The notes under the pieces were generated by a model, which saw only the letters and a list, made by a program, of their open reading frames with translations, ran no database searches and had not been told where the DNA came from. DNA of 63,119 bases, filler included, from Reclinomonas americana ATCC 50394 (lineage: Eukaryota), in NCBI GenBank assembly GCA_048213135.1. It is 13 parts of 13 records of this genome, joined end to end, with 100 filler letters (N's around TTAATTAATTAA, not from the genome) between each part and the next. Parts side by side here need not be neighbours in the genome. Positions count along the whole stretch, not along the records: positions 24,295 to 26,683 come from AFZH01019030.1; 12 more parts are not named here. One strand, given 5' to 3'. The position numbers and the translations under genes are program-made. This document shows positions 1 through 62,181 of the stretch, in pieces (positions within the stretch are counted from its first letter, which is position 1; each line of letters opens with the position of its first letter).

Positions 1-14
1 GAAGAAGAAGAAGA

Positions 15-53
<39 letters not shown>

Positions 54-281
54 AGGAGAAGGAGGAAAAGAGAGAGACAGGAATGCAAGTGTCTTGTAAA
101 GCAGTGCAGCACACTGCGGATAAGTCGTGTTGAAGTTTGGACCACACAATCACTCAAAAAGAGACAAGAACAAATGCAGCTACTTGTCTCTCTCACCCCC
201 GTGTACCCGATATACAACAGGAGAGAGAGATAGATCAAAGACAGCAGGCAACAGTCGAGATATCCCGAGGAAAAGAACTCA

Positions 282-2968
282 CCGGCAAACGAATCACCCA
301 GTGCCGCAATGCACAAGTGCTCGTCCTTGCCAGTGCCCGACCACTTGGCCGTCACATTCAGCTGCGGCATGTCCAGCCATGAGTGGCGGAAGTCCACGCC
401 ATCGGACGCTGCGAGCAAAATAGAGTGAGCAACATTGCCCAGCGCCGCCGCGGCCGCCGCCGCCAAGCACACGTTTGACATACCCAGGAGCTCTTCAGTG
501 GCCGAGGCGTACAACTGCAACGCCATCTCGGCCTGATTGCGGCCAATGATCTCGGCGCTCTTGTACCTGCAGTGCAAGCACGTGAGCACGAGTACAATCG
601 ACTCCCGAACCAACCAATCAACCACCGGCACGCAACTGATCAGGGTATCCCGGTCCGCGAGCCACACACAACTCCGTCTTGCCGCCGCACGTGGACGTGA
701 TGCGGTCGCACGGCGTGTTGTCGGGGCAGAACGCGCCTATTTCTCACACATGTCAGTCACTGGCGCGCGGCACGAGCAAGGGCGCACGACGCACGCACCC
801 AGCGTGTTTGGCGTCACATCGCCGGCATTGGCTTGCACAAAGGCGGCGACGAACGCGCCAGTGCCAGGGAGTGAACCGGGGTTCTTGATCTCTTCCACGA
901 TTTGCGACGCGATGCCCTTGTTGTCGCCCGAGACGTACTGCGCGAGAGAAATCGGAAGAGTTGGAGAAATCGAAGTGTGAGGAAACGAGGTGCAGTGAAA
1001 GATGATGAGGCAAGGACAAGCACGGAAGCGGGGGTGACATCCAACCAAACGAACCCTATTCTTGTTGCCAATGGCCGTTCCGTGCTGCGCGAACAAACAC
1101 AGTTGCTCGTCAGGCACACAAAGCAGAGAGAGACAGCCGAGCCGCAGACACCACTGATGCTCACCACTGCAAACCACGTAATCATGCCGCGGTCGCTGCC
1201 GTCCATACCGACAATCTTGATCACGGTAATGTCCTTGTCCGTGTCGCCGTCGGGGTACTGAGCGCGCTCCGACTCCGGGTTGAGCAAGTACGACGTGGCT
1301 GAACGGCTGCGGCGAATCGATCAGGAACTCAGCAAATAAACAGACAACAATGTCGGCAGGCGCCGCAACTTGGCGTTCGAGTTGTACAGCTTGCCCTGGT
1401 TGACGTAGACGCGCGACGGCTGCATGCTGTTGTGTGCAGCGTCGATACTGTGGCGTGGAGAGGTTAGGAGAGTGGAGTGAACACGTGCACAGACGTAAAC
1501 AGAGTCACACACGAGAGATGATAGTGTAGCGAGAGAGAAAGAGAAAGACAGAACATCGCAAGACTGCACAAACGAGACAAGAGAGACAGCGCAGGAACAG
1601 ATGAATCCAAAAAATGAGCGAGTGAGATCGAGTCTTGCAGCAGAGAGAGCAATCATGCACACATACGAGTCTCGCACAGCGTGAACGGAGCACAATGTCA
1701 CAATCATCTCCTTCCCAAATCAAACCTGGCAAGAATACCGCCGACCACCGCCTCAAAGTTCTCCTTCGAGAAGCCAAGCGACGAAATCTGTTCACAGCAT
1801 TAGACACCACGCCCTCACTTTCTCTACACGCTCACGAAAAATAAACAGCCGCCGTCTCACGAAACGTCATACAAGGCGTAGTAGCTGTAGGCGCCTGGTC
1901 CGCTGTGGGTGTGCGTGCCCGTAATCATCACTGCGCGTGCAACGATGCACAGTGAGCACAACGGTTCACATGCGCCATGTCGTCACGCCGCACCATTGTC
2001 GTGCTTGTAGAGCGAGCCGTACTTGGCTCGCAGCCTCTCAATGACCATGAGCTTCACCGATTGCATGGTCATGCAAGAATCTGCACGTCAGACAGCGTGA
2101 CACAGCAGTGAGCACGTGAGAAGCAACAAGCAGCACCACACTCGCACGTCGCACGACGTACCGAGATTCACCACGACCACGCGTTGGCCATTGGCCTCGA
2201 AAATGTACGCGCGCGCGCGCTGAGCGGAGAATCTTTAGTCTCTCGGATCATGGTCGCCCGAAACACGTGTGACGGGGAGAAGGAGAGGAAGAAGGGAACG
2301 GGGTGAATGAACGCACGCACCAGACGCAGGTTCAAACCCTCGGCAATCTGCTCCAGCATGGCGTCTGCGCCACAGCAAATACACTTGTGAGTGACTGGGA
2401 TTTCCCGCCACTCGTCATTCAGTAAACGACGCAACATCCCATCATCTCGACGCCTTGCACGGGGCCTGTGCATGCAGCAGAACAAGGCGTGTGAGAGAGG
2501 GAGAGGGAGAGAGGGAAAGGCGGAGAATAATTGCTCGAATCGCGCGGGGGAATTCACACTCTCACTCACTCGCTCTCTCTCGCACAAACACACATTTGTG
2601 CGTGCGTAGTGTGTGGGGCACTCACCGGTGATGTCATAGGTGCCAATCTACGCACGACGACACGAAGAAAAAAAAGAAAGTGAGCGGGGGTCAGCGCACA
2701 TCGACATGAACAACACTCTTTCCGCACAACACCACACCACGAATCATCTCTTCGCACATAACTCGCGCGCATTCGCGGGCACTCTGACACACTCGACACA
2801 CACACACGCACACACGAGTACGAGAGGAGCGTGAAACGCAACTCCGACATTAAAGTTGGACGACTGCTCAGTGTGGAAGTGCTGCTCCTCGTTCGCCGAG
2901 ACCAGCAGCGCGGTGGCGACAACAGTGCACACCAGTACGCACAAAAGTGCACTGAGAGAGCCTCGCAT
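282..2968 (-). CDS. Neutral/alkaline non-lysosomal ceramidase (multi-exon; 3' end runs off the left edge of the window)
   Basis: Spliced translation gives a signal peptide MRGSLSALLCVLVCTVVATALL, then FNVGIGTYDITGPVQGVEMMGYA, RLRARAYIF, ITGTHTHSGPGAYSYYALYD, NRSATSYLLNPESERAQY, WFAVHGT, SGDNKGIAS, FVAAFVQANAGDVTPN and CIAALGDSFAG. These match the ASAH2-type neutral ceramidase motifs in order. Confidence 0.93.
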
Positions 2969-3479: not shown

Positions 3480-3579
3480 NNNNNNNNNNNNNNNNNNNNN
3501 NNNNNNNNNNNNNNNNNNNNNNNTTAATTAATTAANNNNNNNNNNNNNNNNNNNNNNNNNNNNNNNNNNNNNNNNNNNN
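3480..3579. other. Artificial scaffold linker (N44-TTAATTAATTAA-N44, stops in all six frames); first of 12
   Basis: The identical 100-bp pattern starts at 3480, 8590, 18999, 24195, 26684, 29239, 36614, 38817, 42959, 49908, 55043 and 57518. Confidence 0.98.
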
Positions 3580-6700: not shown

Positions 6701-9700
6701 GGCGAAGGTGGTGGCATGGAGTCTGTGTTAGATTGACAAAAAGTGAGCACCATTGGAGACCTCCCTGCGACACCCACAGATGCTCACCAGAGTACTGCGA
6801 CCGCGCAGTTACGAGCACTGAGGGCTGGCCGGGTGCGGCTGACGGTGGTCTGCGACTCAAGTCGTCCACCAGTCGTCGCTCCACTTGCTGCTGCTCCAAC
6901 AGCTCCATCTCCAATCGCTCGGCGCGCTTGCGTTGCGCGTCGGCCTGCCGCCGCAGCTCCAGCAACTCACGCTGCATGTCAAGCATGCGCTCACTGGCCG
7001 CAAAGTCGCGATCACGCACATCGGTGGTCTCACGATGCTGTCGCTCCGTCAGGCGACGCTCCGCATGCACAGCACGCAGCTCAGCCTCGTCCATCCGCGC
7101 TTGCAAGTGGACTCGCTCCTTGTCCCATCGGTCGACCTGAAGCACGCAAGAGTGGAAACATATTCAGTAAAAGATGCAAGAAGACACCGCCCTCCTCTCC
7201 TCTCCTCTCCTCTCCTCTCACACTCTCTCGTATACAAATACACACATGTATACAAGCATGTACTCATCTATTTTGCAAACAACACATACAAAACCAACAA
7301 CAAACATACACACTCCCCCCTCTCGCTCTACTCCCCTCCCCTTCCCCGCACCTGATCCTTCACCCGCAGCAACTCCTCATTCCGCCGATGCACCTCGGCC
7401 TCTGCCTTGTACAACAGCTCGGACAGTCCACGTGACCTCTCGCGCTCAGCAACCAGCTCGTCGGTGAGGGCCTGCTCACGACCATCCCGATTGGCCGATT
7501 GCAGGCGCGTGGCCAGGCGTACTTCGCTCTCCAGCCGCGAGATTTCCATCTCGCGCTTTCGCGCTTGCGATTCCCACTGTCGTGCAGACTCCACAGTCTC
7601 CTCCAGTTGTCGTCGCAAGTCGTCCTTCTCCAGCTGCCAGTTGCGAATCCATGCCTCGTGCCGGTCCTTGACGTCGCGCACACTCTCCGTCGTGCGCATC
7701 TGTTCCCGCTGCATCTCTGCCAGCAGATCGTCATAACGCTTGCGCGCGGCAGTGAGCTCCTGTCGCAGCTGATCCTCGCGGTGCTTGTAGTCATTAATAA
7801 TCGCCTCCCACTCGTCGGCGTCGCTGGCACGTCCGTCGCGCCGCGCACTGCTCGGAGCCGAACTACCGCCACCACCATCGTCGCCGCCGCCATCCACTCG
7901 TGGTGTGAGCAGCGACGTCAGCGGATCGCTCGGGGCACGTGAGGGTGGACGGGAGGCTGACGACGAGGAGCGCGAGGCTTCAGCTTGCGCCAGCTGGCGA
8001 GACACTTCGCTGAGCCGCGTAGTCACTCGATCGAGTTCGCGTTGCAACGACTCGGCGCGAGCACGGTGCGTCGACACGGCTTCCTCCACCAGCCGCCGCA
8101 GTTCCTCTGTGGCGATTTATAAAGGGTGAGTGCCTCGAGTGTTCCCTCGTCACCGTTTTCTGTCATTTGTCTTCTTGCAGTCCCTCCTCCCATAGGAAAT
8201 GGAGAGTGGAGAGAGAGAGGAGGGGAACGCTAAAGAACGAGCCTGAAGAGCTGACAAGTACGTGTGGGAATATGGGGATCACAAACGCCGAAGAGGCAAG
8301 ACACTCGCAACAAGCGACAAAGATCGCTACGAGAGGGGACAAGTTCTTTCCACTCACTATTCCCTACCTACATCCTCTCTCCCCCCTCTCGCCCGCCCGG
8401 TATTCTGCTCGTTCCCTATTTCTCGCCCTTTTCTTGCTGCTCTCTTACCCCTCTGTGCATCTCTCTCTCTTTTTCTCTCTCCCTCTCTCCCCCCTCTCTC
8501 TCTCTTTCCTATCACCGCCCGCCTTCCCCATTTCTCGCCTTTTCCCCTTCAGCTCTCTCCCTCCACTCCGCCTTCTACTACCCTTCCCCNNNNNNNNNNN
8601 NNNNNNNNNNNNNNNNNNNNNNNNNNNNNNNNNTTAATTAATTAANNNNNNNNNNNNNNNNNNNNNNNNNNNNNNNNNNNNNNNNNNNNTGACCGCACCC
8701 TGCAGTATTTCGCGCTTCAGCTCCGACTCGTGCTCCGTGAGTCGCGTGACGTCCTCCCGCAGTCGTTCGACCTCACGCCGCCGCTCCTCGAGACTCTTGC
8801 GGTACGTCTCGATCTTGGTGCGCGCCTCGGCGAGCTCCGACTGCACACCCCACGTCTGCAACAGGGAGAGGTGAGACAAAATATGGCTTGTTGGCACGGT
8901 GCGCCTCCACGCAACGTCGTCTGTCGCCTTTTTGGCCTCGCGCTCCAAGTTGCGCAATTGCTCGCCATGCAACCGCTCCATGCGCTCCAGGTCGTTTTCG
9001 TGTCGCTGTTGCGCGTCCTCCAACTGCTTCTCCACCAGGCGGCATTGATTGCGTTGCGATTCCAGCTGGCCGCGCAACTCGATCATCTGCGTCTCCATGG
9101 ACTGCAGCTCGGCGCGGTGCTGGTTACGAATCTCGCGAATCTCATTGTCCTTGGCCTGCACGGCCGCACGGTGCCGGTCGCGGTCGTCCATCACCACCTT
9201 TTCCAGACGCAACACCTCTTGCTCGGCCTTGCCCAGCTTTTGTTCGTAGCGCCGTGAGACCGTATCGCGTTCCTCCGTGTTCTGCACCGAGTCAATGGTT
9301 GGCACTGGTTCTCCCCCCGCCTTTGTCTTTCTTGCACAGTGCATCACTCACCTTGTCCACGGTCATTCGCAGCTCCGCCAGCTGATCCTCCTTCAGCGCG
9401 ACCGTATCGCTGAGCTCCAAGCGCACGGCGCGCAGCTCTTCCTCCGCCGCTCGCAGACGATCTCGCACGTCGGCCAGCTGCAACTCGGCCTGCTTGCGCT
9501 CCCGCTGCGCATCAAAGGCCGCCGAGTCGGCCTCGGAGACCTTGCGCCGCCACTCGTCCTCTCGCTGCAGCATCTCCTCACGCCCCGCCCGCATGGCGCG
9601 ATCACGCTGGTCGACGACATCCTCCCACTTGAGGGTGATTTCTCGACGCGCCACATCAATCGCCTCCCGACTCTCACGCTCCATGCGCTTGGCGTCGGCT

Positions 9701-11548: not shown

Positions 11549-14500
11549 ATGCTGCTGCGTCCGCTGCTGTTGAGCCTGGTGGCAGCGGCAGCCGCTCGAC
11601 CGCGAGTGCTCTCTGCCTCCTCGCCTTCTTCACTGTCGACATGCTGGTCACTGACGCAGCAGAGATGGTGGAGTGCATCACGTGCTCCGCGGACTCCTGC
11701 GGCCGGTGCGACTTCCACGACTGGTGGTGGCGCATCGATGGCCAGCGCGGCACTGTTGGCGCGCATTCGTCGCATGGTGGATCGTGGACAGTTGAAACAG
11801 GCACAGGCCTTGTGTAAAGACGCCACTGCCAAAGGAGTTTTGTATGCGAGGCCGTGTTGTTCTGTCGTCTCTCTTCTCCGCGCGTGTGTGTGCGTGTGTG
11901 CGTGCTGTGCGTGTGTTGTGCGTGCGTGTGTTTGTGGCTGACATGTTCGCTCTTGGTGGTGCAGGTCCGCGACCCTGAGATCGCTCGCACACTCAAGCGA
12001 CTCACGAAGGATCTGTCGTCGGAGAGCACTGTCGTGGCTGCGACAGTTGCTGCAGACGATGGAGGAGGAGGAAGTGATTCATCTGCAAATGTCATCGAGT
12101 CGACGCCGTCTGTGTTGTCCTCGTTGTCGATGACCGGTGGCGACTCTTCTCCTCCTCAGTCCTCTTCGTCTTCGTCTTCTTCTTCTCCTCCTTCGTCTTC
12201 GTCTTCATCGTCGTCGTCGTCTCCACCGCCGATCATTGTGTCGGAACATTATCGCGTGTCGGAGGCGGAAATGACCGAGTTCTTTGCGCGGCATCACATC
12301 AAGTATCGTGCGCGGGCCGATGAGGTTTGTGGGAGGGACTGGGGTGGAGGGTGGGTTTGCAGTCTCTTCCACAGCACAGGGCATTATGCAGCAGAGTACA
12401 GTGCAACACAGCACCGCGTAGTGCAGCGCAGCAGTGCTCATTGCGGCACAGCACGTGTGGCATCACACAGCATGTGCACTTCTCCGACAGCGCAGCATAG
12501 ACAGAGTCCTCAGTTGCACTTCGCTACACCGCTCTTCTTCTGGTGCTGTGTCGGTGCTTGCATTGCTGTGCGATGCCCTGTGCTGTACTGCATTTTACTG
12601 TAAGGCTCTTCTTCTGGTGTTGCGTCGGTGCTTGTATTGCTGTGCAATACAAGTGCAGTGCTGCACTTTGCTGTACCGTTCTTCTTCTGGTGTTGTGTCG
12701 GTGCTGTGCATGTGCCGTGCTGTACTTTTGCTTGTCGTTTTGTGCTGTGCTATGAAATACCAAGTGCGGTGCTGCACCGTGTTGCGCTGTGCTATACTGT
12801 GCCGTACTTTGCTTTTCGTGCTTTTCTCCGCCATACTTTGCTTGTCGTGCCGTTCTCACACATCCTCCTTGGCTTTCCCGTGGCAGTTCAACCTCTTCGA
12901 ATGCCCCACCTGTCCACCCCACAAGAACCAGCTCGACAATGTGTGGAAACTGTACGTGAACAAACTCAATGGCTCCTACTTTTGCCATCGCTGCGGCACC
13001 CGTGGCTCGTGGTGGAACTTTAAGCAGCTGTACAACTCTGGCATCTCAATCACGGACTGGAAAGGTCACGTCAGTCGCACGCACACGCGCACACGCACAC
13101 ACACACTTGTCGCTTCACTAACCCTCGTTGTTGTCTTCTTGTTGTCAACCACAGGCGCCACACCCGACGCACAGAAGCCCATTTACCCCGACGAATCCAC
13201 AGTCTCTCTCTACCCGGCGGCGCTGCAGTCGGTACATTCCTCCCTCCTTCTCCCTCCTCTCTCTCTCTCCCTCTCTCTCCCCCTCGCCCACCCTTGCTGA
13301 CACAGAACCCCGACGTACTGCAACGCCTCGCCGACGAGCGCCGACTGACCGCTCAAACTCTCGACTTTTACCGCGTCGGCCTCGCCACCTACTCCTTCAT
13401 GGACGACAAGGAGCGCAAGTGGGTGGAGCACGAGTGTCTCACCTTCCCGTGGATGGAACGCACGCGCCGCGGCTCCGACAAGTGGCGCACGATTCGGTTG
13501 AAGGTGCGCTCGCTGCTGCGCAAGGCATTCATGCGACTGGATCCGGCGGGCGGATCGTGGGGTCTCTTTGGGTGGCACACGGTGCCGGACGACGCCACGC
13601 AACTGGTGCTCACCGAGGGCGAATTTGACGCGCTCGCAGTGTACCAGGCGACCGGAATGCCGGCCGTGTCGCTCCCCAACGGGTGCCGATCGCTGCCGCT
13701 CGAGCTCATCAAGCAGCTGGAGCGTTTTGACCGCATCTACTTGTGGATGGACGATGATGTGCCTGGGCAAGAAGGAGCAGTGCAGTTTGCGCAAAAGGTG
13801 AAGTGGTGTATGAGAGAAAGAGTGAGTAGTAGATGTGGTCTCATTCGAGTGCGAGCAGCTGGGTCTGGAGCGCTGCTTCATTGTGCACGCCAAGGGCGAC
13901 CAACCGGATGGACCGAAAGATGCTTGTGAGGCGCTGGTGCGCGGTCTCGACCTGTCGGAGCGACTTCGTCAGGCGGCTCGCATCCCGCACCAGGCAATTC
14001 TCACCTTTGCCGATCTGAAAGCGGTGCGTGGTGTGCTGCGGATGGGGAGAGGGGCAGCGAGTGAGAGAGGCATCGAGCAAGGCGTTCTGTTGGTATCGTG
14101 TTGTTCTTCGCCTCACTTGCTGCGGCATCGCTGCTACAGGACGTGTTGCGAGAGATTCTGAATCCGGATCAGGTGGCTGGCGTGCAGAGTATGCATCTGC
14201 CGACGTTGAATGCCATTCTCAAGGTAACATTCCCCTCTCTTTACGACGCTGATTGCGTGTTGAGCAACTCATCCGCCGTCGCGCTCTCGCACAGGGTCAC
14301 CGCAGTGGCGAACTCACCATTCTGACGGGTCCCACCGGCATCGGCAAGACTACCATTCTCTCGCAAATGTCGCTCGACTACGCATCGCAGGGTGTACGCA
14401 CACTGTGGGGATCGTTTGAGATCAAGTTGCGCTGGCGTGCGTTCAGTGCACGTTGTGCGTTGCAGTGTGCTGACACGCGTCCAACAGAAACACTCGACTG

Positions 14501-15396
14501 GCGCGCACGATGATGACGCAGTTTGCTGCGGAGCCACTGGGACCGGCGAACTTTGAGGAGTGGGCCTCTCGTTTCTCCGAGGTGCCGATGTACTACCTCA
14601 AGTTCTTTGGCAGTACCGATGTGGACAAGGTTGGTCGGGCGTGGGATGATCTCGCACTTTGTTTCTTGCTATCTTTTGCACCCGCCTTCCATTCCCTGTC
14701 GCTTTCCCGTCTCCTCACCCTCCCCCTCCCTCCCCGCAGGTTCTCGACGCCCTCGAGTACGCGGCCTACGCCTACGACGTGCGCCATGTTGTCATCGACA
14801 ACATCCAGTTCATGACCAGTGGGCAGGCGTACGGCGCCGACAAGTTTGACATGATGGACCGCGCGATTGACAAGTTTCGCAATTTTGCCTCCTCCCGCAA
14901 CGTGCACGTCACGCTGGTGATCCACCCGCGGAAAGTCGACGACGAGGAACGCCTGGGCGTCAGCTCGGTGTTTGGCACGGCCAAGGCGACACAGGAGGCC
15001 GACAATATCATTATCGTGCAGCGAGGCACTGCGTTTAGGTGAGCCTTCCACGCGCTGTTGTCGCCCTTCTTAAGTGCTCAACACCCTTCGTCGCGCAGAT
15101 ATCTGGAGGTGAAGAAGAATCGCTTCGACGGTGAACTCGGTCGCATTCCGTTCCTCTTCGACAAGGCCACGTCGAAGATCTACGAACTGTCGTCGGAGGA
15201 GCAGCGACAGCTGGAGGCGCAGTACCAGCAGCAGTTGCAGGAGAGTGGTGAGTCGTCGCCCAGGTCGTCGTCGTCGTCGTCCTCGTCAATGTCGTGGTCG
15301 AATCGCTCGTCGGGCGGTCGCGGCACACGACGCAAGTACGCGTCGTCGCCCGGCAGTGCATCGCCCAGTGGCGGCGAGGGCACACTAATGACGTGA
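11549..15396 (+). CDS. TWNK: Mitochondrial Twinkle primase-helicase (T7 gp4-like, SF4)
   Basis: Arg/Ser/Leu-rich targeting peptide [19 protein letters not shown]. Zn-binding domain CPTC...[13 protein letters not shown] motifs [13 protein letters not shown] and WMDDDVPG. Walker [10 protein letters not shown], then [34 protein letters not shown] and KNRFDG. All introns read as GT-AG. Confidence 0.96.
12530..12725. repeat. Intronic minisatellite, ~73-bp unit x3, in Twinkle
   Basis: tcttcttctggtg(c/t)tg(t/c)gtcggtgct recurs at ~12533, ~12607 and ~12680. Confidence 0.8.
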
Positions 15397-15496: not shown

Positions 15497-16441
15497 TCAC
15501 TTGGTGTTCTTCCACTGGAAGTAGCCGGTCACAAACGCACCAAGCATGCCGAGCCATCCAATGACATCGTTCCGCAGACCAATGCCACCGGGAACGCCCC
15601 AGTGCACGGCCAGCACCAGATCGGCCGTCATCTTGGCCGACTTCCACCATGTGGCCCGTCGCTTCGCGCGCACCGTCTCCAGCTCATCGCGCAACGCCGC
15701 CACATTCTCCGACGGCGCCGCCGTGACAATCGAACGCTCCAGCTCGCGTTGCCTGGCCGCCGCCAACCGGTCGCGCAGCAACATGGACGAGATGTCCATG
15801 ACCAGGTTGACGACCCACAACCACATGGTGGCGAGCTCCACGGGCGTCGACACATGCTCTGGCATCGTGCCCGGGCTCATGTAGTTCACCCACAGCGCCA
15901 TCTCCAGTGGATTGTAGGCAATCATGCTGAGCGCCGATATGTCGTCGCAGCGTGAGGCCACTCGCAGGCGCCAATCCGACGACTGTCGCTCGGCATTCGG
16001 CGACGCCACCACCAGTGCATAGTCGATGCCCATGAAGAAGCGCAGACAGTAGCGCGTCATGGAGAGACCGCTGCCGACTTTTTGCACGGTGGTCAGAATG
16101 TGCTTGGCGCGCTCCGAGTTCGCCGGCATGTGTTGCGAGAGGTGGTAGGCTGTTCACACACACACAGCGCAGCGAGTAAGTAAAAAGAAAAAGATGCATT
16201 TCCCGCGCGTGTACGTGTGTGTCTTGTCAAACTGATGATCAGTGTGTGCGTGTGCATGTGTTAAGAAGGCGAGAGTGTGCGAGAAGACGCACACACACAC
16301 ATTCGCGTGTGGTGAGACGCAACAGACGATTTTGGAACCGTAGGCCAGAGAGCGATACACCTTGTCGGCTCCCCAAATTCCACTGAGGAAGCGCGAGAGA
16401 CGGCCCAGCGTCTGCAGTGCGCTTGAGGTGCTGTCGGACAT
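15497..16441 (-). CDS. PEX11: Peroxisomal biogenesis factor 11 (PEX11, gamma-like), 2 exons
   Basis: N-terminal FLSGIWGADKVYRSLAYGSK, SMTRYCLRFF, and C-terminal ADLVLAVHWGVPGG...GWLGMLGA are typical PEX11 features. Confidence 0.85.
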
Positions 16442-18998: not shown

Positions 18999-19126
18999 NN
19001 NNNNNNNNNNNNNNNNNNNNNNNNNNNNNNNNNNNNNNNNNNTTAATTAATTAANNNNNNNNNNNNNNNNNNNNNNNNNNNNNNNNNNNNNNNNNNNNGC
19101 GGGTTACGCATGGTTACACGACGCGG

Positions 19127-22290: not shown

Positions 22291-23965
22291 ATGTCTCGTC
22301 CGGATTCTCCGGCCTCTTTCCACTCGGCGCCTGATCGTCCGCCGGCTCGTGACGCCGCCAGTGTGCCGCCGCTCGTGTCAGTTGCGTGGCAACAGTGACA
22401 AGCCTCAAGCGATTTCCCCGCCCGCTCACTCACAATGCTTACGTCATCAGCAGGCGGAGCAAGCTCGCGCACGACCGCTACAGCCGTTGTATCGCCCACC
22501 GAGCTCTGCCTCGTATCACAGCTCCCGGTCGTTCCCCGAGTTCGCCATGCCTCCGACGCCGCCGCCCATGCGGTCTGAGGCGGTCGTGAACCGACCGGCT
22601 GCGCCAAGTTGAGTTGTCTCTGCGTCCTCTGCTGTCTGGGCGGAGTGAGCTCACTCTTGTGTGACTTTCACAGCTCCCGACGCGACCCCGACCAAGCTCC
22701 CTCCGTCGGATTCGCCACCGGACGACCGTGGCCACGACAGACGACGCCGTGGTGGCGGTGGCGATGGTCGTCGTGGTCGAGCAGGTGGTGCTGGTGGTGG
22801 AGCGCGAGGTTCTGGCGGCGGCGCCATTGTGCCCGTACGCAACGCCGCCAACAACTACAACAACGTTCCCGGTCGCGAGTTGATTCCGCGCGATCCGAGT
22901 CCCGAAGTCGTGCAGGTGTGTTCAGATAATCATGACATGGTTTTCCTCTCAGCTCATCACGTCTCTCGCAGCGTTCCTACGGCTCCTCGCCAACGTGGAA
23001 CGATGCCGATCGCCGACAGGTAGCGCGACGCGACTATCCGCACGACAGAGACTGGGCGCTGTCGGCCATGGACGACGTGGAGCGTGTCGGTCAGTCCATG
23101 ATGCAACGCATGCACAGCACCATGGAGAGTTGCGTGCAAAGGACTGCGTGTGTGAGTCGCGATGCATTGTCTCACTGTCTCTCTCGCTATCGCTGCCGCA
23201 CAGACATGTTCAGCAACATGCAGCGTGCATTCGCCGACGTAAACCTCGGCGATCCGGACGCACTGTGGGACTCCATGGCGCCGAGTCGTGAACCGCTGCG
23301 CATGCAGGCCAGTTCGCCATCGAAGCCCTTGCGTTGCTTCACGACCACACGTACCACGCGTGGCACTGGAGGGGTGTGTGTGTGTGCATACGCGGCGCGA
23401 TGCGAGCGCTGAAACCGTGGCAGTGTGCTCACCGTCGTTGTGTGCGCTCAGGTGATTGAGACGGAGCGCATCAGCAAGGACTATGAGGCAGGCACGGAGC
23501 AGCGAGTTGCGTGGCCTGCCAAAGTGCCTTTGTCAATCGATGTAGTGCTGACGTTGTGCTGCACAGTGGGTGAAGCGCGAGGCGAACGGAGCGGCGCACA
23601 CAGTGGTGAGTGAAACGCTGAGGAATTCGCCAGCCAGACAACAGGTGTGCTCACTGACCGGTTCGTGAACAGGGCTACGTTCGCGATGCAAGCGGGCGCG
23701 ACGAGACCATTGACTACGTGGAGAACATGGACGAAGGTTTGCTTGCCACCTTGCTTGCTTGGAAAGACTCTTTTTTTTTTTTCGAACGTCGCGTGCAGCC
23801 CATCGCACCCAATTCGACGACGCCTGGAACGCCACGTACGAGCACTCGCTGCCGGCGTGGAGCCGGCGCAACCACCCCGAGTACCGCGCTCTGCAGCAGC
23901 AGACATCGCCGCCGTCCGTCATGCGCCTGCCGGCCATCACCGCCAGCGCCAGCGGACGCCGTTGA
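22291..23965 (+). CDS. Myeloid leukemia factor (MLF)-like protein with Pro/Gly-rich N-terminus (start uncertain; possible upstream exon ~21689)
   Basis: Met-rich segment MMQRMHSTMENMFSNMQRAF. The C-terminal GGVIETERISKDYEAGTEQRWVKREANGAAHTV...DETIDYVENMDEAHRTQFDDAW resembles the MLF domain. Confidence 0.65.
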
Positions 23966-24465
23966 TCGACAGGCAACAACGAATGACAAGAAGAAGAACA
24001 GCAAGAGAAGAGTATGGCGGTTGTAAACATGTGTTTGACGCAACTCAACGATTTCACCAGCTGGTGGGCACAAAGCAATCACGAGAGCCGGCTTGCAAAT
24101 TGGTTCTCTCTCCGAACACTCCGTCACTTCTCTCTCTCTCTTTTGTTTCACGCACGCACAAGTTGCGCACTCTCTCTCTCTCTCTCTCTCACTCNNNNNN
24201 NNNNNNNNNNNNNNNNNNNNNNNNNNNNNNNNNNNNNNTTAATTAATTAANNNNNNNNNNNNNNNNNNNNNNNNNNNNNNNNNNNNNNNNNNNNACGACC
24301 GAACTACACACGAGACGGCGTCGTCACTAGTTCGTCTCTCTACACTCTCACTCTCTCTCTCTCTTTCTTTCTTACGCACGCACAACTAGTCGCGCACTCT
24401 CTCTCTCTCTCTCTCACTCCTCCTCTCTCTCTCTCTCTCTCTCACTCACTCTGACTCCCTCACAG

Positions 24466-25995
24466 TGTCACTCGCACCAGTGATCGACACCGGCGACACC
24501 GTCACATTTCGATGGCCTGTGAGTGACAGCGCCTCACAGTCCTCCTCCGTGCTGGTCACTGGCAGCTGGGATCGATGGTCGTCGCGAGTGCCACTCGATC
24601 GACGAGTGACAGTCACTGCCTTGTCGGAGGCACACACAACAACACCAAGTGATTGGTGGGAGGCGAGAGTATTCATCCCCTCGGATGTGGTGCAGATCGA
24701 GTACAAGGTGAGCGGGGAGAGTTAGTGAGAATGAGAGAGAGTGTGTGTGGCAGAGAGAGAGCAAGCAAGGACATTTTTGGCTTCTGTCATCGTTTCCCAT
24801 CGTCATCCCTCATGTGTTCACTTTGTGTTTCCACACACACATCGACACGCACGTACACACACACACACGTGAGCATCGCGCCTTTTGTTGCTGATCGAAT
24901 ATTCGCATCTTCTTCCCTTGCAGTTCATTGTCAATGGCATTTGGTTGTTGGATCCGGCGGCGCCGACGGTGACTGCGCCCGAGGGCTACATCAACAACGT
25001 GCTGCAGCTGGAGGATATGGTGGCGCGACGCATTCGTGAGGCGCAGGCACGTGAGCGGCAACGACGGGAGGAGGAGCTGAAGGAGAAGGAGAAGCAGGAT
25101 CGACAGGTACGTGCGCGGAGGTCGGGCGCTGTTTTTTGCTCTCCACTGCGCGTGACTCATTGCGTGTTTTGGCAGCCGTGGCGATGCAGGTGCTGTGCTA
25201 GTCAGCGTCGCAGAGACTCCCCGCCGTGCGCTTACCTGTGTTTGTGTGGGGTGCGCAGGAATTGCTGGGGCACAGTGTCAAATCTCACTCCGGGTCCTTG
25301 TCGGTTCCATCCAGTTGCGAGTCTGAATCTACGTCCACTGCTCTGCGTGCGTTTCTCATCCCCCATTTTCCTCGATGCACAGGGCCGGGTGTGTGCTCTT
25401 TGGTGCTATTGTTGTCGAATCATCTGTGCGACCCACTGACATGCATTCCATTTTTGTTCCCTTGCTGTCTCGGTGGATTCACGGACACAGTGTGTGAGTT
25501 GTCGTTGTCTAGCCTTGTGTGCCTCTGTTCTTTCGCACTGACGTGCTGTTCTTGCTCGCAGATTGTGCGTTATCAAGCGTCTTGCAAATGTTGTTGTTGT
25601 TGTTGTCGGTGTTCCATTCTGACACATCTGCGTTCCATCTCTTGTCGACGCGCGATCCGCTGTGCAGGGAGTGCGTTGTTTTCGTGTTCCTTTGTGATTC
25701 TGTGCCATTGTGTTGCTGCTCACATGCTTCGTGTTTGCGCAGAGAGTTGTGTGCCTGGATGCCGTGTGCGTGTGTGGTGCATGTTGACTCACTTTGCATT
25801 TCCCGTGTTCCCGTGCCGCACGACAACTCAAACAGCGAGTTGCGTCTGGAGCGCGCTCACGTGATTGCGCACTGTCAGCGGCTAAACTGTGCGTGTATGT
25901 GTGTGCGTCATGTGCAGTGGGCCTGTTGCGGATCCGATCCAGAGGCGACCGGCTGCAAGTTTACTCAATTCCACGAGCGTGAAACCCCGGACTAA
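24466..25995 (+). CDS. CBM48 (AMPK-beta-type glycogen-binding) domain + charged coil + Btk/CHORD-like zinc finger; 5' end unresolved
   Basis: CBM48-like VTFRWP...VLVTGSWDRWS...EYKFIVNGIWLLDPAAPTVTAPEGYINNVL. The C-terminus WRCRNCW...CRFHPGRCIGRRWACCGSDPEATGCKFTQFH is reconstructed through microexons. Confidence 0.8.
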
Positions 25996-26496
25996 ACCGC
26001 CTCGCCCTCTCCTCTCACGACTCTCTAGACGTGAGTGCACATGCTGTGCCATTGCTGCCTCGCAACATGCGACCTCACTCCCTCTCCTATGCAGTCAAGG
26101 CGCGGCGGCGCGAAATCTCTGTGGTGCGGTTCTGCTGCCTTGAAACGTTCAGGGTGGAAATAGTCTGCTGATCTCCATGTGTGTCGCAGTTGAATGTTGT
26201 TGTTTCTTACTCGTGTATGGTTTAATCCCGTCATCTTAACTCCACTCTGGAATCAATGGTGCGTCGCGTTTGCTTGCACGAGTCCGCGTTGTTGGTTCTG
26301 TTGCTCACAAATCGTTCTTCGCAGAACTGATTGTGTTTTGTTGCATCCGTCGGTCTTGCATTTTGGTTGCCTGATCTTGATGTCTGCTGCTGCTGCTGCT
26401 CACTCTGCCATCTGCCTCGCTCCCTTCCTTCGTGCTGTTGCTTGTCCCCTTGGTGACCTAGTTCGTCCCCTCTGTTCACTTCCCTCTTCTCCCTTT

Positions 26497-26590
26497 GTGC
26501 ACTTGCTCGTCCCTGCTTTGTGCTCTTGCTCGTCCCTGCTTTGTGCTCTTGCTCGTCCCTCCTTTGCGCTCTTGCTCATCCCCTCCTTCA
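26497..26590. repeat. 23-bp tandem minisatellite x~4
   Basis: The unit tgctcttgctcgtccctgctttg repeats with slight degeneration. Confidence 0.85.
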
Positions 26591-26783
26591 GGTCCCGATT
26601 CTCATACATACAAACAATGCGTCGGGGCCACTTCATTCAAAATTGGTGTTTCCTTTTGTGTCGCGCCAGAGTGGCTCCCACTTNNNNNNNNNNNNNNNNN
26701 NNNNNNNNNNNNNNNNNNNNNNNNNNNTTAATTAATTAANNNNNNNNNNNNNNNNNNNNNNNNNNNNNNNNNNNNNNNNNNNN

Positions 26784-28285: not shown

Positions 28286-31200
28286 ATGCAGTCGACATGC
28301 GTTGTCGGCTGGGGTCGCAATGCACAGCACCAGGTACGCTGCGCGAGCGATACAACTCACACCACATGCCACTGATCACCTTGTGCATCGCGCCAGTTGT
28401 CTCTCGCCGACGACGACCACCACCAAGAGATCCTGTCGCCGACGGTCATTGTCGCGCAGTCACAACGCACGCTACAGGCAGTGTCCTGCGGGCGAGAGCA
28501 CACGGTTCTCTTGTATGGTGAGGCGATTGATCGCTGTATATACATCGTCGCTGGGATCGCAGCGATCACTCGCTGACCTACTCGCGCACGCAAAGACGAC
28601 GGCGAGTTGGTTGTTCATGGACGCCTGTTGCGTCACGAGGCAGGTATACTGCCGGGCGTGTGGAGTGTGCCGATGCAGAGTGGCCTCCGCCTGCAGGCTG
28701 TGGCATCGGGCGACACTCACTTGATTGCGTTGTCTGGTGTGTTGATCACGCTCCCTCTGCCACTGGAAGGGCGTAGCTGACGCCTGCTGCAGACAACAAT
28801 GTGGTGTACTCGCTTGGTACGGGCGATGTCCTTGGGCGGCAAAGCACGCCACCGGCAGCTGGATTGGACAGTCGGTGTGCTGTGCGTGGTCTGGAACATG
28901 AGTCGATCGTGCAGGTGAGTGTGGTCGGAGAAAGAGAAATGGAGGAAGCGCATGTACTGATGGCGTGGATGCAGGTTGCCGCTGGGGCGCATCACTCGCT
29001 CGCGTTGACAACCACTGGCCGCGTCTATAGCTGGGGGAAAGGTACGGAATCTGCGTATGTGGTCGTGCAAGCCGTGATGTGCCAACGCGGGAGACATGCA
29101 GGCAACTTTGGTGCTCTCGGGCTCAACGAAAGCACCCTATCGGTGACCACCGCCACTCTTGTCGCCACTCTGCGGCATGTTGTGCGTTTTATTGATGCTG
29201 GAGGTAAGTGGTCGCTGTTCTTCATGACCTTACTTTGCNNNNNNNNNNNNNNNNNNNNNNNNNNNNNNNNNNNNNNNNNNNNTTAATTAATTAANNNNNN
29301 NNNNNNNNNNNNNNNNNNNNNNNNNNNNNNNNNNNNNNATTTTGATGTGTCGCGACAGCGGACGACGGCCTGTTGTATTCATTCGGCGATGGATTCCTGG
29401 GCGACGGCAGTCCGCTTGGCGGCTCCACCCACCCATTAGTCGTGTTGCACGACCTCGAATCGTTTGCAGTGACGGATGTGGCCTGCGGCTGGCAGCATAC
29501 GGCCGTGTTGGGTGTGTGCCATTTTTCTCCCTCATCTACTTCCCGTCCAGCCGTTCACTCACTTGCACCGTCTGCATCGTCGGCGTTCACTCTCACAGGC
29601 TCATGGGTCGCTGACGTAGCCTCACGAGACAGTGCATCATTACGTGCATCGCAGCATTTCCTACGCAACACCCGAGGCGACACGTTGAGCATGTCGCGGT
29701 GAGCACTTCCCTTCCCGGTCGATCGTTGCCGCCACACTGCCGAGCTCACTCCCTCGTTTCACGCGCAGCTCTTCATCATCCGCCCGCGCGCTGGCAACGG
29801 CAGCGAGCGACGGATCCGCCGCCGCCGCACGCTTCCGTGACCCAGTTGTGGCCAGCATCGAGAAGCGGACGTTTGTCAGCGATGTGTGGGGCCAGTTTCA
29901 CGAGTTGCACGACGTCCTCTCCAACTACGCCAAGGCTCTCATTCAACAGGAGCGCGACCATCCGGACCGAGTGGCGGCGCTTCTCCGCATCGCGCAACTC
30001 GAAAAATCAATGTTGGAAGGTCAGCTATTGATATGGCACTGAGATCGCTCTCCCTTTTATTCACACTCATCTGTGCGCAACAGGCCATGCACTCACCGAC
30101 GATGAGCTGGTGGAAATCAATCGTCTGCGCTCCATGGTCAATCTGTCGAGTTCGGCCTCGCTGCTGAACAACACTGTGCGCTTCAATCGCCCGCCACCAC
30201 CGCAGCAGCAGCAGGCGCGGCGTGCATCAATATCGATGACCGACGCGGCCTTGGCGCCGGCACCCATCTCGAGCGAGAGCCCACGTGATGTGCCGATGGC
30301 AGCGCGTCCCGCCATGCGACTGTCCATGTTGTCAAGTTGCGTCTCCCGTGCACCCTCGTGTTCACAAATCAGTCAGTGCTCACTGCATCTCCTGCATGCA
30401 GATGGCCACCCACCGTCCATGGAGGACGAAGTCGAGCAGTCGTTGCAGCGTTGCGTTGTTGGTCTGTCGCCACCCAGTTTGTTCACAAACATACTTACTT
30501 GTCGCTGTCGGCAGGCATGCATGATCTCACTCTCGAGCTGAGCGACATTCAGAACTCCATCCCAGCACCGCCGCCCTTGATGCTCAGCGGCAAGGTGTGT
30601 TGGCATGTCAATTGTGGGCTTGCGCTGTACGCCTATGCTCACTGTTGCTCGTAGGCCATGAGAGGAGCATCCGGGAGCCTGCTGCCGAATTCGTGGCAGG
30701 TGCGTGTGTTCCACATCCCGACTTCAGTGGAGTCGACTGTCGCTGAAAAATCTCGTCTTGCTCTGCCACAGGCAGCTGTTCAAGACCTCACGCGAGCATT
30801 CTCCGGTCTCGTCAAGAGCTGCAGCGGTGTGGGCGAGTTCCGCGACCGTGCTGGAGATCGTCTGGTGCTGTGGACCTCACTCAACGCACACGACGTGGAG
30901 ACTGAAGTCGAGGCCATTGGCGTGCTAGTCAATGTGGCCAGTGCGTGTGAGCTCATGCGCATCGTTGTCGACCGTCTCTGTTGCGTACTCTTTTTCGGGG
31001 CCACGGTAGTTGCATCTTGATATGTTCGTGTATACGTGATGTCGTTCTTGGTTTTCGACTTGCCCTTTGTTTTGTGTCCCTCCCTCATGCCTCTCTTCTC
31101 ACCCCCGCCTCTCCCCTGTAGGCCACACCACAAGCATCCAGTTTGACCAGGTTGCCGACCTGCAGAGTGCGTTGGACGCACAACGCCAGGCGTACCGCGT

Positions 31201-34200: not shown

Positions 34201-35628
34201 CGACATCGTGCCGACTCGCTGCAGGATGAGCTCGGACGAGTGACGTCGCTGCTCGAGCAGCAGGCCGTGGTGCAGGAGGTGTGTACGTGCCTGCTGCGTT
34301 TGTGCTGCGCGTTTGCACTCACTTGTGGTGAAAGGCGGAGCAACGTCGGCTGTTGGAGCGCCTGGACAAGGTCACACGGGAGGTGACGAGCGTGAACCAG
34401 GAACTGGACGGAGTGCGCGACGAGAATCGCAGGGTTTGTGCAAGTTGTCGTCGCCTCCATAATGCAGACCCACTCACACGTCTCCGTTCCGCGACAGCTA
34501 TCGCTCCACGCGGCCGAGTTGGAGGCGGTGCTCCAAGAAACCCAGAGGCGAGCCAAGGAGGCCGCTGAAGTGGCGTTGCGCGAATCACGTCGAAACGACC
34601 AGTCAAGGTTGGCCTCACGCATGTTGTTGTGATCTTGGACGTGTCGCGTTCACTCAGTTGTGTGTGTGCGTATGTGCAGTGTCATTCAGCGCCTCCGCGA
34701 CGACTTGCGAGTCTCTCAAGACGCGCGCCGGGAGACTGCGGCTGTGGCGCACGCGCTGCACTCGTTTGTGTGTGCTGTGGATGAGGCGTGCGACGAGTCG
34801 AACCCGTCGTTGAGTGGTCGCACGCGCATGTTGGAGTCGCGTGATCCTTTCGTCGACAGCGAAGGGCGCCAGCTGCCCGATCGGTCGGCCTTGTTGCGTG
34901 TGTTCTCGCGAGTGCGCGTGCAAGTACTGAAGTGGGGTGCGTCTGCTTTCCGTGCATCGCTGGCTATTTGACTGCGCCACTCATCCTTCCATTACTTGCA
35001 GCGATGCTCTCACCGGTGGCTGGTGCGACGTCTCGTGCCTTTCATCCTGCATGTTCGTCACAGCTCTCACTGGTGTGTACACAGGCTCGCCACAGGGACC
35101 TGTGCAGGAGAGAATACGAGCCAGCGAAGAGGCAGTGGTGAGTCGTCGGCGTGGCTGTGGCCGGTGCGAGTGCACGTGTGTCATTATGTCAGTGTGCAGG
35201 CACAACGTGAGCGCGAACTCGGTCTCCTGCGGCGCGAGCTGAAGGACCTGTGTCACATTTTCTTGCTGGTGATGCCACTGTTGCAAAAGAGTGCCATGTT
35301 TGCCGACGCTGCGGGCCAGCAAACACTGCAAGATATTGGTCGACGCTTTGCCGAGCTGTCGCCCACCAGTGCGCCGCTCACCGTCGCCATGTCGTCGCCG
35401 ACTTCCACCGTCACGACTGATCTCATACGACGCGCGTCGTCGCTGGCCGGATCGTCGGCAGGATCGGGTACACCACTACCACCACGTGCTCCCTCCTCGT
35501 CCTCGCGAGCGAATTCCAGGTCGCCAACGCGACCGCCAGTGCGCTTGTCTTCAACGGCGATCAGCGCCGCCACGCCGTCATCGCGATCGTCGAGAAGTGA
35601 GTCCACCACCATTTTACGGCCCGAATGA
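28286..35628 (+). CDS. RCC1/BLIP-II repeat protein with long C-terminal coiled coil and Ser-rich tail (multi-exon; spans the gap at 29239)
   Basis: RCC1-type motifs VVGWGRNAQHQ, CGREHT, QVAAGAHHSLALTTTGRVYSWGKGNFGALGL and VYSFGDGFLGDG...DVACGWQHTAVL. E/R/Q-rich heptad exons follow, ending STTILRPE*. Confidence 0.8.
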
Positions 35629-60202: not shown

Positions 60203-62181
60203 ATGGTGTGGTACGACAGGCTGCTGGAGTCCAACGTGCTGCCGGACTGGTCAGTGCTGCACGACATGCATGCTGCTTGTTTACGCGCGCGCTGCGACAT
60301 GGCGGTACTGATTGCCACCTCTCTCCCTCTCCCTTCCTCTCCCTCTCTCGCTTGCCGTTCGTTTGCGATGCAGGCTGGTGCGCATTGGCATTCGTCGACT
60401 GCTGCGCTCTCGTCTGCAGGAGATTGCATCACCGACGGCGGAGTTGCATCATGAGCGACTGCGACAGTACCTGACACGTTTGCGACGCGAGGACTGCATT
60501 GCGGTGGCCACGGATGAGGCCAACCAACAGCACTATGAAGTGTTGCGTGAAGGGCGAGGGAGGAGGAGGGGGAGTGAGGTGTGAGAAGTCTGCTGCTGCA
60601 GCACCAGCAATGCGAGAGTTTTTCGGCGGCGGAAACTCCGCTCGGCAGCGAGCAGTCAGCTGCAGGGCGCATGATACACTCTAGCAGAGTCCCTCTTCCT
60701 ATGAGCGAGCGCATGTGCGTGTGTCTCTCTCTCCCTCCTCGTGATTCTCTCTGTGACGGTGACGCGGCGGGGAGATTCGTCTAATGCGTTGTTCACAAGC
60801 GGAGTTTTCGCCGTCGCAAGCATCTTTTGCGCTGACGACCAGTGCTGCAGTCACCCCATCTCCGTGAGCTAGGCAAGATGTTTGTTTGAGTGCTTGTGCT
60901 TTACTCTCTCTCCACTCTCCCACCTGATATCGTTCTTTTTCGCTTTGTACAAGTTCTCACGTTCTCGTTCGCCACACTCCTTTGGTCTCGTCATGATCAC
61001 TTCTCTGCTCTGCAGTTGTCAATTCTCACCCATGCTCTCGCCCTCTCCCTCCCACTCTCTCTTCTAATGTCGCTCTTTTTCGCGTTGTACAAAGTTCTCA
61101 CACTGCGTACTCGTTCTCTGCAGCTGTCAAAACTCACTCCCTTTCCTCTCGCAGACCCACCGAGTTCTTCCACTTGTCTCTCGGGGCGCGGAAAAAGTAT
61201 TCGTCGTGCTACTGGCCCGACGGCTGTCGCACGCTGGAGGAAGCCGAGACGCACTGCTTGGAGTTGTACGTCGATCGTGCACAGCTGCACGATGGACAGG
61301 ATGTGCTTGATCTCGGCTGCGGGTTGCGTAGCCAAATGATAAAAGTGTCGCCTCTGCGATCGCTTACCGATCAGTGCAGGTGGGGCTCGTTTACCCTGTT
61401 CGCCGCCCAGCGATTCCCCAACTCGCGCATCACCGCCGTCTCCAACTCGTCGACGCAGCGCGAGTACATTGAGAGCGAGTGCCGCCGTCTGGCGCTGAAA
61501 AACGTCACAGTCATCACGTGCGACATTAACCGGCTGGCGCTGCCGGCGGCATCCTTCGACCGAGTGGTCTCTGTGGAGATGCTCGAGCACGTGAAGAACT
61601 ACGAGGCCGTGATGCGTCGCATTTCGTCGTGGATGCGCGACGACGGCCTCCTCTTTGTGCACGTCTTTTGTCACAAGGATACGCCGTATGATTTCGAGGA
61701 CGGGTGGATGGCCGAGCATTTCTTCACCGGTGGCACCATGCCGTCGGCACAATTGTTTCACTACTTTCAGGAGAATGTGGTGCTGGTGGATCAGGTGTGA
61801 GAGGAATGGGGAAAAGGGGGGAGAAGGGGGTGATTTGTTGACTGACCTGCCTGCAGTGGTTGATGAACGGCGAGCACTACGGCAAGACATGCGAGGCGTG
61901 GCTGGAGCGCATGGATATGCACGAAACTCGCATCCGCGATCTGTTTGCGGAGACGTACGGAGCAGGGGAGGAGACCAAGTGGATCGTTCGCTGGTGAGAG
62001 TGGGGAGTGCATGAATTGTTCACACAACACGAGTTCTCACCTCTCGGGCTCACCGCGCAGGCGCTTGTTCTACATGGCGTGTGCGGAGCTCTTCAACTAC
62101 GATGGTGGAAACGAGTGGTTCGTTTCGCACTACTTGTTCAAGAAGCGCGCAAGTCCACCGCCAGCCGCTGTGGTCATGTGA
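60203..62181 (+). CDS. SAM-dependent methyltransferase, coclaurine N-methyltransferase / cyclopropane-fatty-acid synthase family
   Basis: [98 protein letters not shown] and [24 protein letters not shown]. Confidence 0.93.

Follow-up and report, generated by a model that had tools for sequence, protein, structure and literature searches.

In Reclinomonas americana ATCC 50394 (assembly GCA_048213135.1), a gene on the plus strand of contig AFZH01019030.1 appears to build part of a putative zinc module from exons of one codon each. The contig is 2389 nt long and occupies positions 24295-26683 of the 63,119-nt stretch of joined contigs that was analysed here as a whole, hereafter the window. In the reading that we favour, and to which we give a probability of about 65%, the splice signals of this locus point to a true chain of tiny exons, one of 6 nt and five (possibly four) of a single codon, which together encode the loop of a CHORD/Btk-like zinc module. 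The 604 bp between an exon that ends in CRFHP and the exon that encodes WACC would then be, rather than one intron, a series of seven spliceosomal introns, short (68-103 nt) and of ordinary make. Each would have a 5' site to itself, followed at about 45-57 nt by a CTSAY branch site and then by a tract rich in pyrimidines and an acceptor CAG that is the first AG. The next 5' site would lie 3 nt (once 6 nt) past each acceptor and, since the bases between an acceptor and a donor placed so close to it stay in the mRNA, the mature transcript would keep GGCCGG, TGT, ATT, GGA, AGA and CGA. The loop between a His ligand and a CC pair would be made up by the 6-nt exon together with the five exons of one codon, and the C-terminal Cys/His module would be encoded by nine exons, a 14-nt exon included.

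A preliminary description of the region had laid out this chain, and its eight exon coordinates, their flanks and the seven intron lengths (69, 102, 68, 103, 72, 90 and 79 nt) are all exact. Every claimed intron ends in CAG in the sequence, and phase 0 is kept at every junction, with no stop arising, when the 14-nt exon (25176-25189) sets the frame. The proposal of single-codon exons also stands as far as the signals go, in that seven complete sets of short-intron signals lie end to end, separated by spacers of 3 or 6 nt. The chain leaves a 55-nt exon (25259-25313, ...NCWGTVSNLTPGPCRFHP in the frame set by the 14-nt exon) ending in CRFHP. Intron 1 (25314-25382, 69 nt) has the donor GTTGCG, a CTCAT branch motif 44 nt from it and the CAG 24 nt past the branch A, and is followed by the exon GGCCGG (Gly-Arg, 25383-25388). 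Intron 2 (25389-25490, 102 nt) runs from GTGTGT through a CTGAC at 50 nt to a CAG 51 nt past the branch A, ahead of the exon TGT (Cys, 25491-25493), and intron 3 (25494-25561, 68 nt; GTGAGT, CTGAC at 47 nt, CAG at 20 nt) precedes ATT (Ile, 25562-25564), both of whose flanking introns satisfy the strictest of the definitions used below. Then come intron 4 (25565-25667, 103 nt; GTGCGT, CTGAC at 57 nt, CAG at 45 nt) and GGA (Gly, 25668-25670), intron 5 (25671-25742, 72 nt; GTGCGT, CTCAC at 51 nt, CAG at 20 nt) and AGA (Arg, 25743-25745), the least certain exon, and intron 6 (25746-25835, 90 nt; GTTGTG, CTCAC at 45 nt, CAG at 44 nt) and CGA (Arg, 25836-25838). Intron 7 (25839-25917, 79 nt; GTTGCG...CAG) has its likely branch site at CTAAAC (25882-25887), and contains a rival acceptor CAG at 25876-25878; it leads to the last coding exon in this reading (25918-25995), which consists of WACCGSDPEATGCKFTQFHERETPD followed by a TAA stop. 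The claimed introns alternate between short and long: the distance from donor to branch motif is constant, and that from branch motif to CAG alternates (24, 51, 20, 45, 20, 44 nt).

In base composition, the 604-nt gap (25314-25917) is rich in T and G and poor in A (T 208, G 168, C 150, A 78), with 77 GT and 17 AG dinucleotides. It contains eight CAGs, the last of which is the final acceptor; five of the other seven are followed by NNN-GT, one by N6-GT, and that at 25876-25878 by neither. The mere number of CAG-NNN-GT motifs is weak evidence. There are 96 of them on the plus strand of the window and 102 on the minus strand, and the five within the gap are equalled in four other 604-nt stretches. 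Chains of at least five such units, spaced 45-120 nt apart, arose in 11 of 300 and in 10 of 300 block-wise dinucleotide shuffles of the whole window; when the gap alone was shuffled, a chain of five was seen in none of 5000 trials.

More telling is the nature of the donors. Donor classes were learnt without the target region, by counting GT hexamers found 55-81 nt upstream of 283 branch-plus-CAG signals and, as a control, at a distance of 130-156 nt; this enrichment is independent of the hand-picked seeds from which the reference introns were taken. GTTGCG (26 near vs 5 control), GTGCGT (23 vs 9), GTGAGT (11 vs 1) and GTGTGT (22 vs 13) are enriched, and six of the seven claimed donors (in order GTTGCG, GTGTGT, GTGAGT, GTGCGT, GTGCGT, GTTGTG and GTTGCG) fall into these classes. 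The exception is GTTGTG at 25746, which is not enriched (3 near vs 5 control) and is a weak donor for the exon that it would close. GTTGCG is the most enriched 5' splice-site hexamer (examples are 8856-8915 and 1307-1369 on the minus strand, and 23129-23203 and 23506-23566 on the plus strand) despite breaking the usual GTNNGY pattern; that it pairs with U1 via a bulged T is a speculation. The combination of a CAG, 3 nt and one of GTTGCG, GTGCGT or GTGAGT occurs 11 times in the window, both strands counted, and four of these sites are inside the gap, where about 0.03 would be expected from the other seven.

The gap holds exactly seven CT[CG]A[CT] motifs, and in introns 1-6, each of which has one, the motif lies 44, 50, 47, 57, 51 and 45 nt from the donor, as compared with 42-66 nt in short reference introns, with the claimed CAG being in every case the first AG past it. 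An intron was called well formed if it had a donor of a named class, the branch A of a CT[CG]A[CT] motif 40-66 nt downstream, and if the first AG met from 7 nt past that A onwards belonged to a CAG. With the top three donors, 56 such introns are present on both strands of the window and two pairs of them are at most 30 nt apart, both at this locus; with GTGTGT as a fourth donor, the number of introns rises to 87 and that of such pairs to five (four exons), again all at this locus. Finally, any GT was accepted as a donor in 20,000 dinucleotide shuffles of 25290-25925, and each shuffle was scored by its longest run of well-formed introns with exons of 3 or 6 nt between them: this was 0 in 5681 shuffles, 1 in 14047, 2 in 271 and 3 in 1, vs 6 in the real sequence. 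That the definitions of a well-formed intron were fixed after the region had been seen must be held against this comparison, whose margin is still of several orders of magnitude. The claimed introns, of 68-103 nt, are within the range of well-formed candidates in the window (49-113 nt, with a peak at 56-78 nt and a cap near 120 nt set by the definition itself).

The signal architecture of the gap is thus non-random, far beyond chance. Each 3-nt exon has a canonical 3' site directly upstream and a 5' site directly downstream; these are strongest around TGT, ATT and GGA and weaker at AGA, with its donor GTTGTG, and CGA has a top-class donor, the branch site of the next intron being non-consensus. 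The seven units are not copies of one another, as their mean column identity is 26% and the z value of their pairwise alignments does not exceed 3.3, nor was any tandem repeat beyond a (TGT)6 run found. An origin of the units by tandem duplication or as introners was considered and rejected, for want of mutual similarity. Since the units are unlike each other outside the signals, the latter have probably been maintained by selection and not recently copied.

Spliced in this way, the sequence would read HP-GRCIGRR-WACC, with CRFHP and WACC in one frame and a spacing of H-x10-CC. Each 3- or 6-nt exon is a multiple of three, and together they supply that spacing. As a pattern, the product shows two C3H sets, C-x2-C-x11-C-x2-H and CC-x8-C-x5-H, and the CHORD domain is likewise described as two C3H motifs binding one zinc each (PMC12129344). 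The zinc ligands of BTK are His143 and Cys154/155/165 (PMC3836457), which gives H-x10-CC-x9-C. Of these two spacings, the spliced reading agrees with one, H-x10-CC, and is off by one in the other, CC-x8-C vs x9, both depending on the predicted splicing. The likeness of the spliced reading to CHORD and Btk modules (PMC12129344, PMC3836457) extends to the two C3H sets, to HP before and W-x-CC after the loop, and to the H-x10-CC; among the differences, besides that x8, are the lack of a Pfam match on the pieces of the module, of a PH domain, and of a tandem CHORD or a CS domain.

In canonical CHORD domains the spacing from His to CC is about 14 residues, as opposed to 10 in the spliced reading. 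CHORD and Btk fingers have reportedly been related to each other in a study by Kaur and Subramanian (2018). Btk motifs normally stand directly C-terminal to a PH domain; here Pfam finds no PH domain upstream, on a contig that lacks the 5' end of the gene, and the neighbours of the module are a CBM53/AMPK1_CBM-like carbohydrate-binding module (CBM) and a coiled coil. Membership of the predicted module in the Btk/CHORD family is unproven.

The rest of the gene model is as follows. A first exon (24466-24707, plus strand, as are all the features of the gene), with its acceptor just upstream at 24463-24465 (...ctgactccctcacag), encodes the N-terminal part of the CBM. A 216-nt intron (24708-24923, GTGAGC...CAG) bridges positions 9-32 and 51-81 of the AMPK1_CBM profile, and a 183-nt exon (24924-25106) provides the remainder of the module (AMPK1_CBM 51-81) and then a Glu/Arg/Lys-rich, coiled-coil-like stretch, ending in phase 0. 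The codon score of this second exon is +33.9 in the coding frame vs -35 and -33 in the others, the exon itself being in the training set. On the upstream exons, Pfam scores CBM53 at E=3e-5 and AMPK1_CBM at E=5.7e-4; both are under the curated cut-offs, so that the module is a divergent one. The 5' end of the gene is beyond the contig, and the 5' intron also runs off it. As the second exon ends at 25106, a correction to the preliminary description, the next intron is 25107-25175 (69 nt), with donor GTACGT, a CTCAT branch motif 52 nt from the donor and a CAG. It is followed by the 14-nt exon (25176-25189), which encodes PWRC plus two bases and is flanked by two 69-nt introns; it is placed by frame arithmetic, being needed because the next exon must enter the Cys/His frame. 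The second of these introns (25190-25258, GTGCTG...GCGCAG) has a non-consensus branch candidate, CGCTTAC. In the product of the gene, a sugar-binding CBM and a coiled coil would thus be followed by a CHORD/Btk-like module with two zincs.

A number of observations weigh against the chain as a whole or against parts of it, and they are considered here together with the alternatives on which they bear. The exact position of the donors is one such point. GT is very frequent in the gap, and the same seven 3' sites might be joined with some other 5' sites, giving fewer or larger exons and a longer, different loop. For the GGCCGG exon, donors at +8 and +10 are also available, although out of frame, so that its size is ambiguous. 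At 25743 an in-frame 6-nt exon, AGAGTT (25743-25748), with donor GTGTGC at 25749 (15 near vs 14 control), is as possible as the 3-nt AGA; and a 28-nt exon (25562-25589) can be paired with a 23-nt exon (25743-25765), the GTGCGT at 25766 then opening a 70-nt intron of typical length. A position-weight splice model with a length prior gives several in-frame, stop-free parses that use the same acceptors and longer exons, at 104-107 units, at or slightly above the score of the chain. Moreover, three introns of the chain, of 90-103 nt, are at the long end of the range, those of 102 and 103 nt being near the upper end of the lengths seen in the window; the distance from branch to CAG is 44-51 nt in three of the seven, as in only 9 of 127 well-formed candidates elsewhere; and a G precedes the donor in only one of the six micro-exons, vs about 58% in reference introns.

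These parses with longer exons are nevertheless rated lower, because their later donors are only 8-38 nt from strong branch motifs, which is short of the distances in reference introns, and because they leave unexplained why a top-class donor stands exactly 3 nt past four of the six internal acceptors. Their longer exons would consist of TG-repeat-like sequence. A similar rearrangement can be drawn for the first part of the module, in which an exon at 25176-25239 (64 nt), an intron at 25240-25314, an exon at 25315-25346 (32 nt) and an intron at 25347-25490 replace the 14-, 55- and 6-nt exons. Here the intron 25240-25314 is itself well formed (GTTTGT, CTCAC at 47 nt, CAG), and its branch motif, pyrimidine tract and CAG (25284-25314, plus strand) fall inside what would be the 55-nt coding exon. 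This version keeps the frame of WACC, but loses the HP. Overall, we consider it unlikely that other donors are the ones used, while workable alternatives do exist for the sizes of the exons at 25383 and 25743, for the first part with its 14-, 55- and 6-nt exons, and for the coding 3' end.

Intron 7 lacks a branch motif that is both of the consensus type and usably far from the donor. The preliminary description had ascribed a branch motif to every intron; in intron 7 the CTCAC is only 20 nt from the donor and pairs instead with the CAG at 25876-25878, its branch A being 19 nt upstream of that acceptor. The gap could also be removed in a single step, either as a 565-nt intron (25314-25878) ending at this CAG, which is in frame with WACC, so that 13 residues from 25879-25917 would be added, or as a 604-nt intron (25314-25917) joining HP to WACC, with the internal sites acting as decoys or in minor isoforms. 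Such a model is the simplest, as it makes micro-exons unnecessary, and longer introns are present in this very gene (the 216-nt intron and the 5' intron that runs off the contig). However, the six complete internal pairs of acceptor and donor, whose presence is far beyond chance, would compete with the outer sites and, if unused, should be selected against. The 13 extra residues would come from TG-repeat sequence, the window's well-formed candidates reach 113 nt under a definition that caps them near 120 nt, and the direct junction would give H-x3-CC, unlike the H-x10-CC of BTK (PMC3836457). We know of no CHORD with H-x3-CC spacing, and hold removal in one step to be less probable still than the use of other donors.

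It may also be asked whether the Cys/His pattern is a coincidence, the introns being real and belonging to a multi-intron non-coding tail or to a decaying part of the gene with no functional zinc module. In this regard, three more well-formed introns (plus strand) follow the stop codon: 26031-26094 (64 nt, beginning 36 nt after the stop), 26124-26189 and 26259-26324 (64-66 nt). The first of them repeats the layout of acceptor, tiny exon and donor, with a TAG at 26026-26028, 2 nt (AC) and GTGAGT at 26031. Either the gene has a 3' untranslated region with several introns, or its coding end or 3' end differs from that assumed. The 55-nt exon is open in all three frames and its codon score, drawn from a training set poor in Cys-rich proteins, is -5.8 in the Cys/His frame vs +1.0 in another. 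Loose motifs of this kind are not very rare as a pair within 1 kb, since C..HP occurs 13 times and CC...C...H four times in the six-frame translation of the window. On the other hand, W.CC...GC...H is matched only once in the 126,234 residues of that translation, directly after an acceptor; two complete C3H sets, as in the CHORD description (PMC12129344), share one frame that ends at a stop; and the codon score of the last exon favours the zinc frame (+0.98 vs -6.4 and -3.5). A coincidence thus seems the most improbable of the alternatives considered.

The searches for relatives also tell against a zinc module, or at least lend it no support. Pfam, with E values up to 10, finds no BTK, CHORD or other family in the last exon (25 aa) or in a 38-aa read-through; BTK and CHORD are not matched by the upstream contiguous pieces either, the spliced peptide being outside this search. 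Word-based protein searches with a 188-aa read-through open reading frame (ORF), with the first exon against longer proteins and with the last 44 aa yielded no homologue, and sequence searches of the PDB with contiguous pieces gave no match. An exhaustive HMMER search with the first exon produced 12 matches, and the six examined are five repeat proteins and one, P0006, with three CBM-like repeats; the zinc tail is absent from P0006 and from the other five. In a scan of metagenome contigs, none of 598 pattern matches was confirmed. The putative domain went unseen in the protein, profile and structure-sequence searches, which were run on contiguous pieces.

Nor are tiny exons an evident habit of this genome, as no two well-formed introns elsewhere in the window are closer than 21 nt. 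In other genes of the window, well-formed introns flank exons that measure 21, 39 and 40 nt, at 35002, 23567 and 43285 (all plus strand); small exons are not rare in it, yet none is shorter than 21 nt outside the target locus. The window consists of contigs of about 2-10 kb, joined by 12 linkers of 44 N, TTAATTAATTAA and 44 N (24 N runs are counted); the linkers include 3480-3579, 8590-8689, 18999-19098, 24195-24294 and 26684-26783, plus seven others. Its DNA is eukaryotic, with a G+C content of about 52-62% and short introns of the GT-AG type. The end of the contig preceding the locus (24105-24194) and the start of the locus contig (24335-24419) match each other at 82.6% over a CT-rich stretch of 92 nt, and so the two contigs may be neighbours that were broken at a microsatellite, with the 5' exons of the gene on the previous one. 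No paralogue or allele of the locus was found in the window, where its only matches are to CT-microsatellite, and neither Rfam families nor tRNAs were found in the region or in the window. In the T-rich tail of the contig there are four to five copies of a 23-nt unit (CTTTGTGCTCTTGCTCGTCCCTG-like; 26470-26584, plus strand). Among the other genes, Pfam, run on pieces of the ORFs that lie in the first 31 kb of the window, recognizes a neutral ceramidase, a Toprim plus AAA_25 (Twinkle-like) primase-helicase, PEX11 and RCC1 repeats, and a CMAS-type methyltransferase takes its name from the ESM Atlas; the coordinates of these genes are 1-1504 (minus strand), 13024-15039 (plus), 15500-16153 (minus), 28777-29699 (plus) and 60997-61797 (plus).

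If the chain of tiny exons is used as its paired sites suggest, recognition would take place across the introns, and these would probably leave in sequence, with the upstream exon growing at every splice. As an exon of 3 nt has no room for the two neighbouring splice complexes simultaneously, the order of removal would be fixed. We tentatively extend this to a scenario in which a 600-nt spacer within a coding exon leaves as seven introns, in an obligatory sequential and recursive-like manner, the single-codon scars having become the loop from His to CysCys and skipping being a possible source of variants in loop length; this is possible rather than probable. Its genomic context is one in which well-formed intron candidates are almost all of 50-110 nt. 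As every tiny exon is a multiple of three, none is needed for the frame; the combinatorial variation of loop length by frame-preserving skipping that the preliminary description derived from this is pure speculation. There is a resemblance to the ratchet points of Drosophila, where adjoining 3' and 5' splice sites in long introns allow stepwise removal through zero-length exons (CAG|GT), in that a 3' site stands next to a 5' site within a long non-coding stretch. Unlike them, the locus would retain 3 nt (once 6) per step, and the plus strand of 25314-25917 contains no CAGGT at all, which excludes zero-length recursive sites.

Exons of this size have precedents. In Coprinopsis cinerea, long-read cDNA identified 13 exons of 1 nt, 57 of 2 nt (in 50 genes) and 27 of 3 nt (in 26 genes), flanked by short introns (PMC12230235), which shows that intron-defined splicing can handle exons of 1-3 nt. 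The locus would share with them exons of up to 3 nt between short introns, confirmed by RNA there and read from DNA signals here, and would differ in number: by these counts at most one Coprinopsis gene has two 3-nt exons, whereas five 3-nt exons, a 6-nt exon and a 14-nt exon would follow each other here within about 800 nt. The window moreover includes a Twinkle-like Toprim/AAA_25 gene, which fungi are not known to possess, and is thus probably not fungal. The micro-exon genes (MEGs) of Schistosoma contain series of 10-20 very short exons. The length of most of these is divisible by three, which preserves the frame when one is skipped; the exons are mostly of 15 bp (with a minimum of 6 bp in the text and 3 bp in the abstract), their introns measure 0.1-5 kb, and the products are secreted, schistosome-specific proteins (bioRxiv 10.1101/2023.06.21.545858). 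Symmetric tiny exons that permit in-frame skipping, as first proposed for our locus, would be common to both. In the R. americana gene, however, the exons would be of 3 nt and the introns of 68-103 nt; the gene is otherwise ordinary and is affected in its C-terminal domain only, without the long introns, the secreted product or the prevalence of micro-exons in the coding sequence by which a MEG of the Schistosoma type is recognized.

Adjacent micro-exons are also described for the plant Peptidase M1 (5 and 12 nt; PMC8831610, PMC11096116) and for RPS24 (3, 18 and 22 bp; PMC12207440), single 3-nt exons for cytohesin-1 and Drosophila hth, and 1-nt exons for APC11/VPS55, conserved in plants, and for Fusarium CYP621A. 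Like these plant and animal cases, the locus has canonical GT-AG introns and exons that are too small for aligners and gene finders, often unannotated and located in conserved motifs. In the published cases found in the literature searched, no more than three lie side by side, only one is of 3 nt or less, and all are verified by RNA, while our run is longer and known from DNA alone. Three or more consecutive 3-nt exons were not found reported in the literature searched. Exons of 1-3 nt being established, the locus would be an extreme variant of known micro-exons.

Should transcripts not confirm the chain, the locus would serve as a warning that signals can be statistically overwhelming and still leave the exact exon boundaries ambiguous. 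Should they confirm it, the locus, with its nine introns within about 810 nt and its five one-codon exons in a row, would mark how small and how closely spaced exons can be in practice. The gene would then offer a compact natural substrate for studying how a 3' and a 5' site are recognized at a distance of only 3 nt and in which order introns are removed, and it would mean that in the intron-rich genes of protists entire protein motifs can escape gene finders and homology searches.

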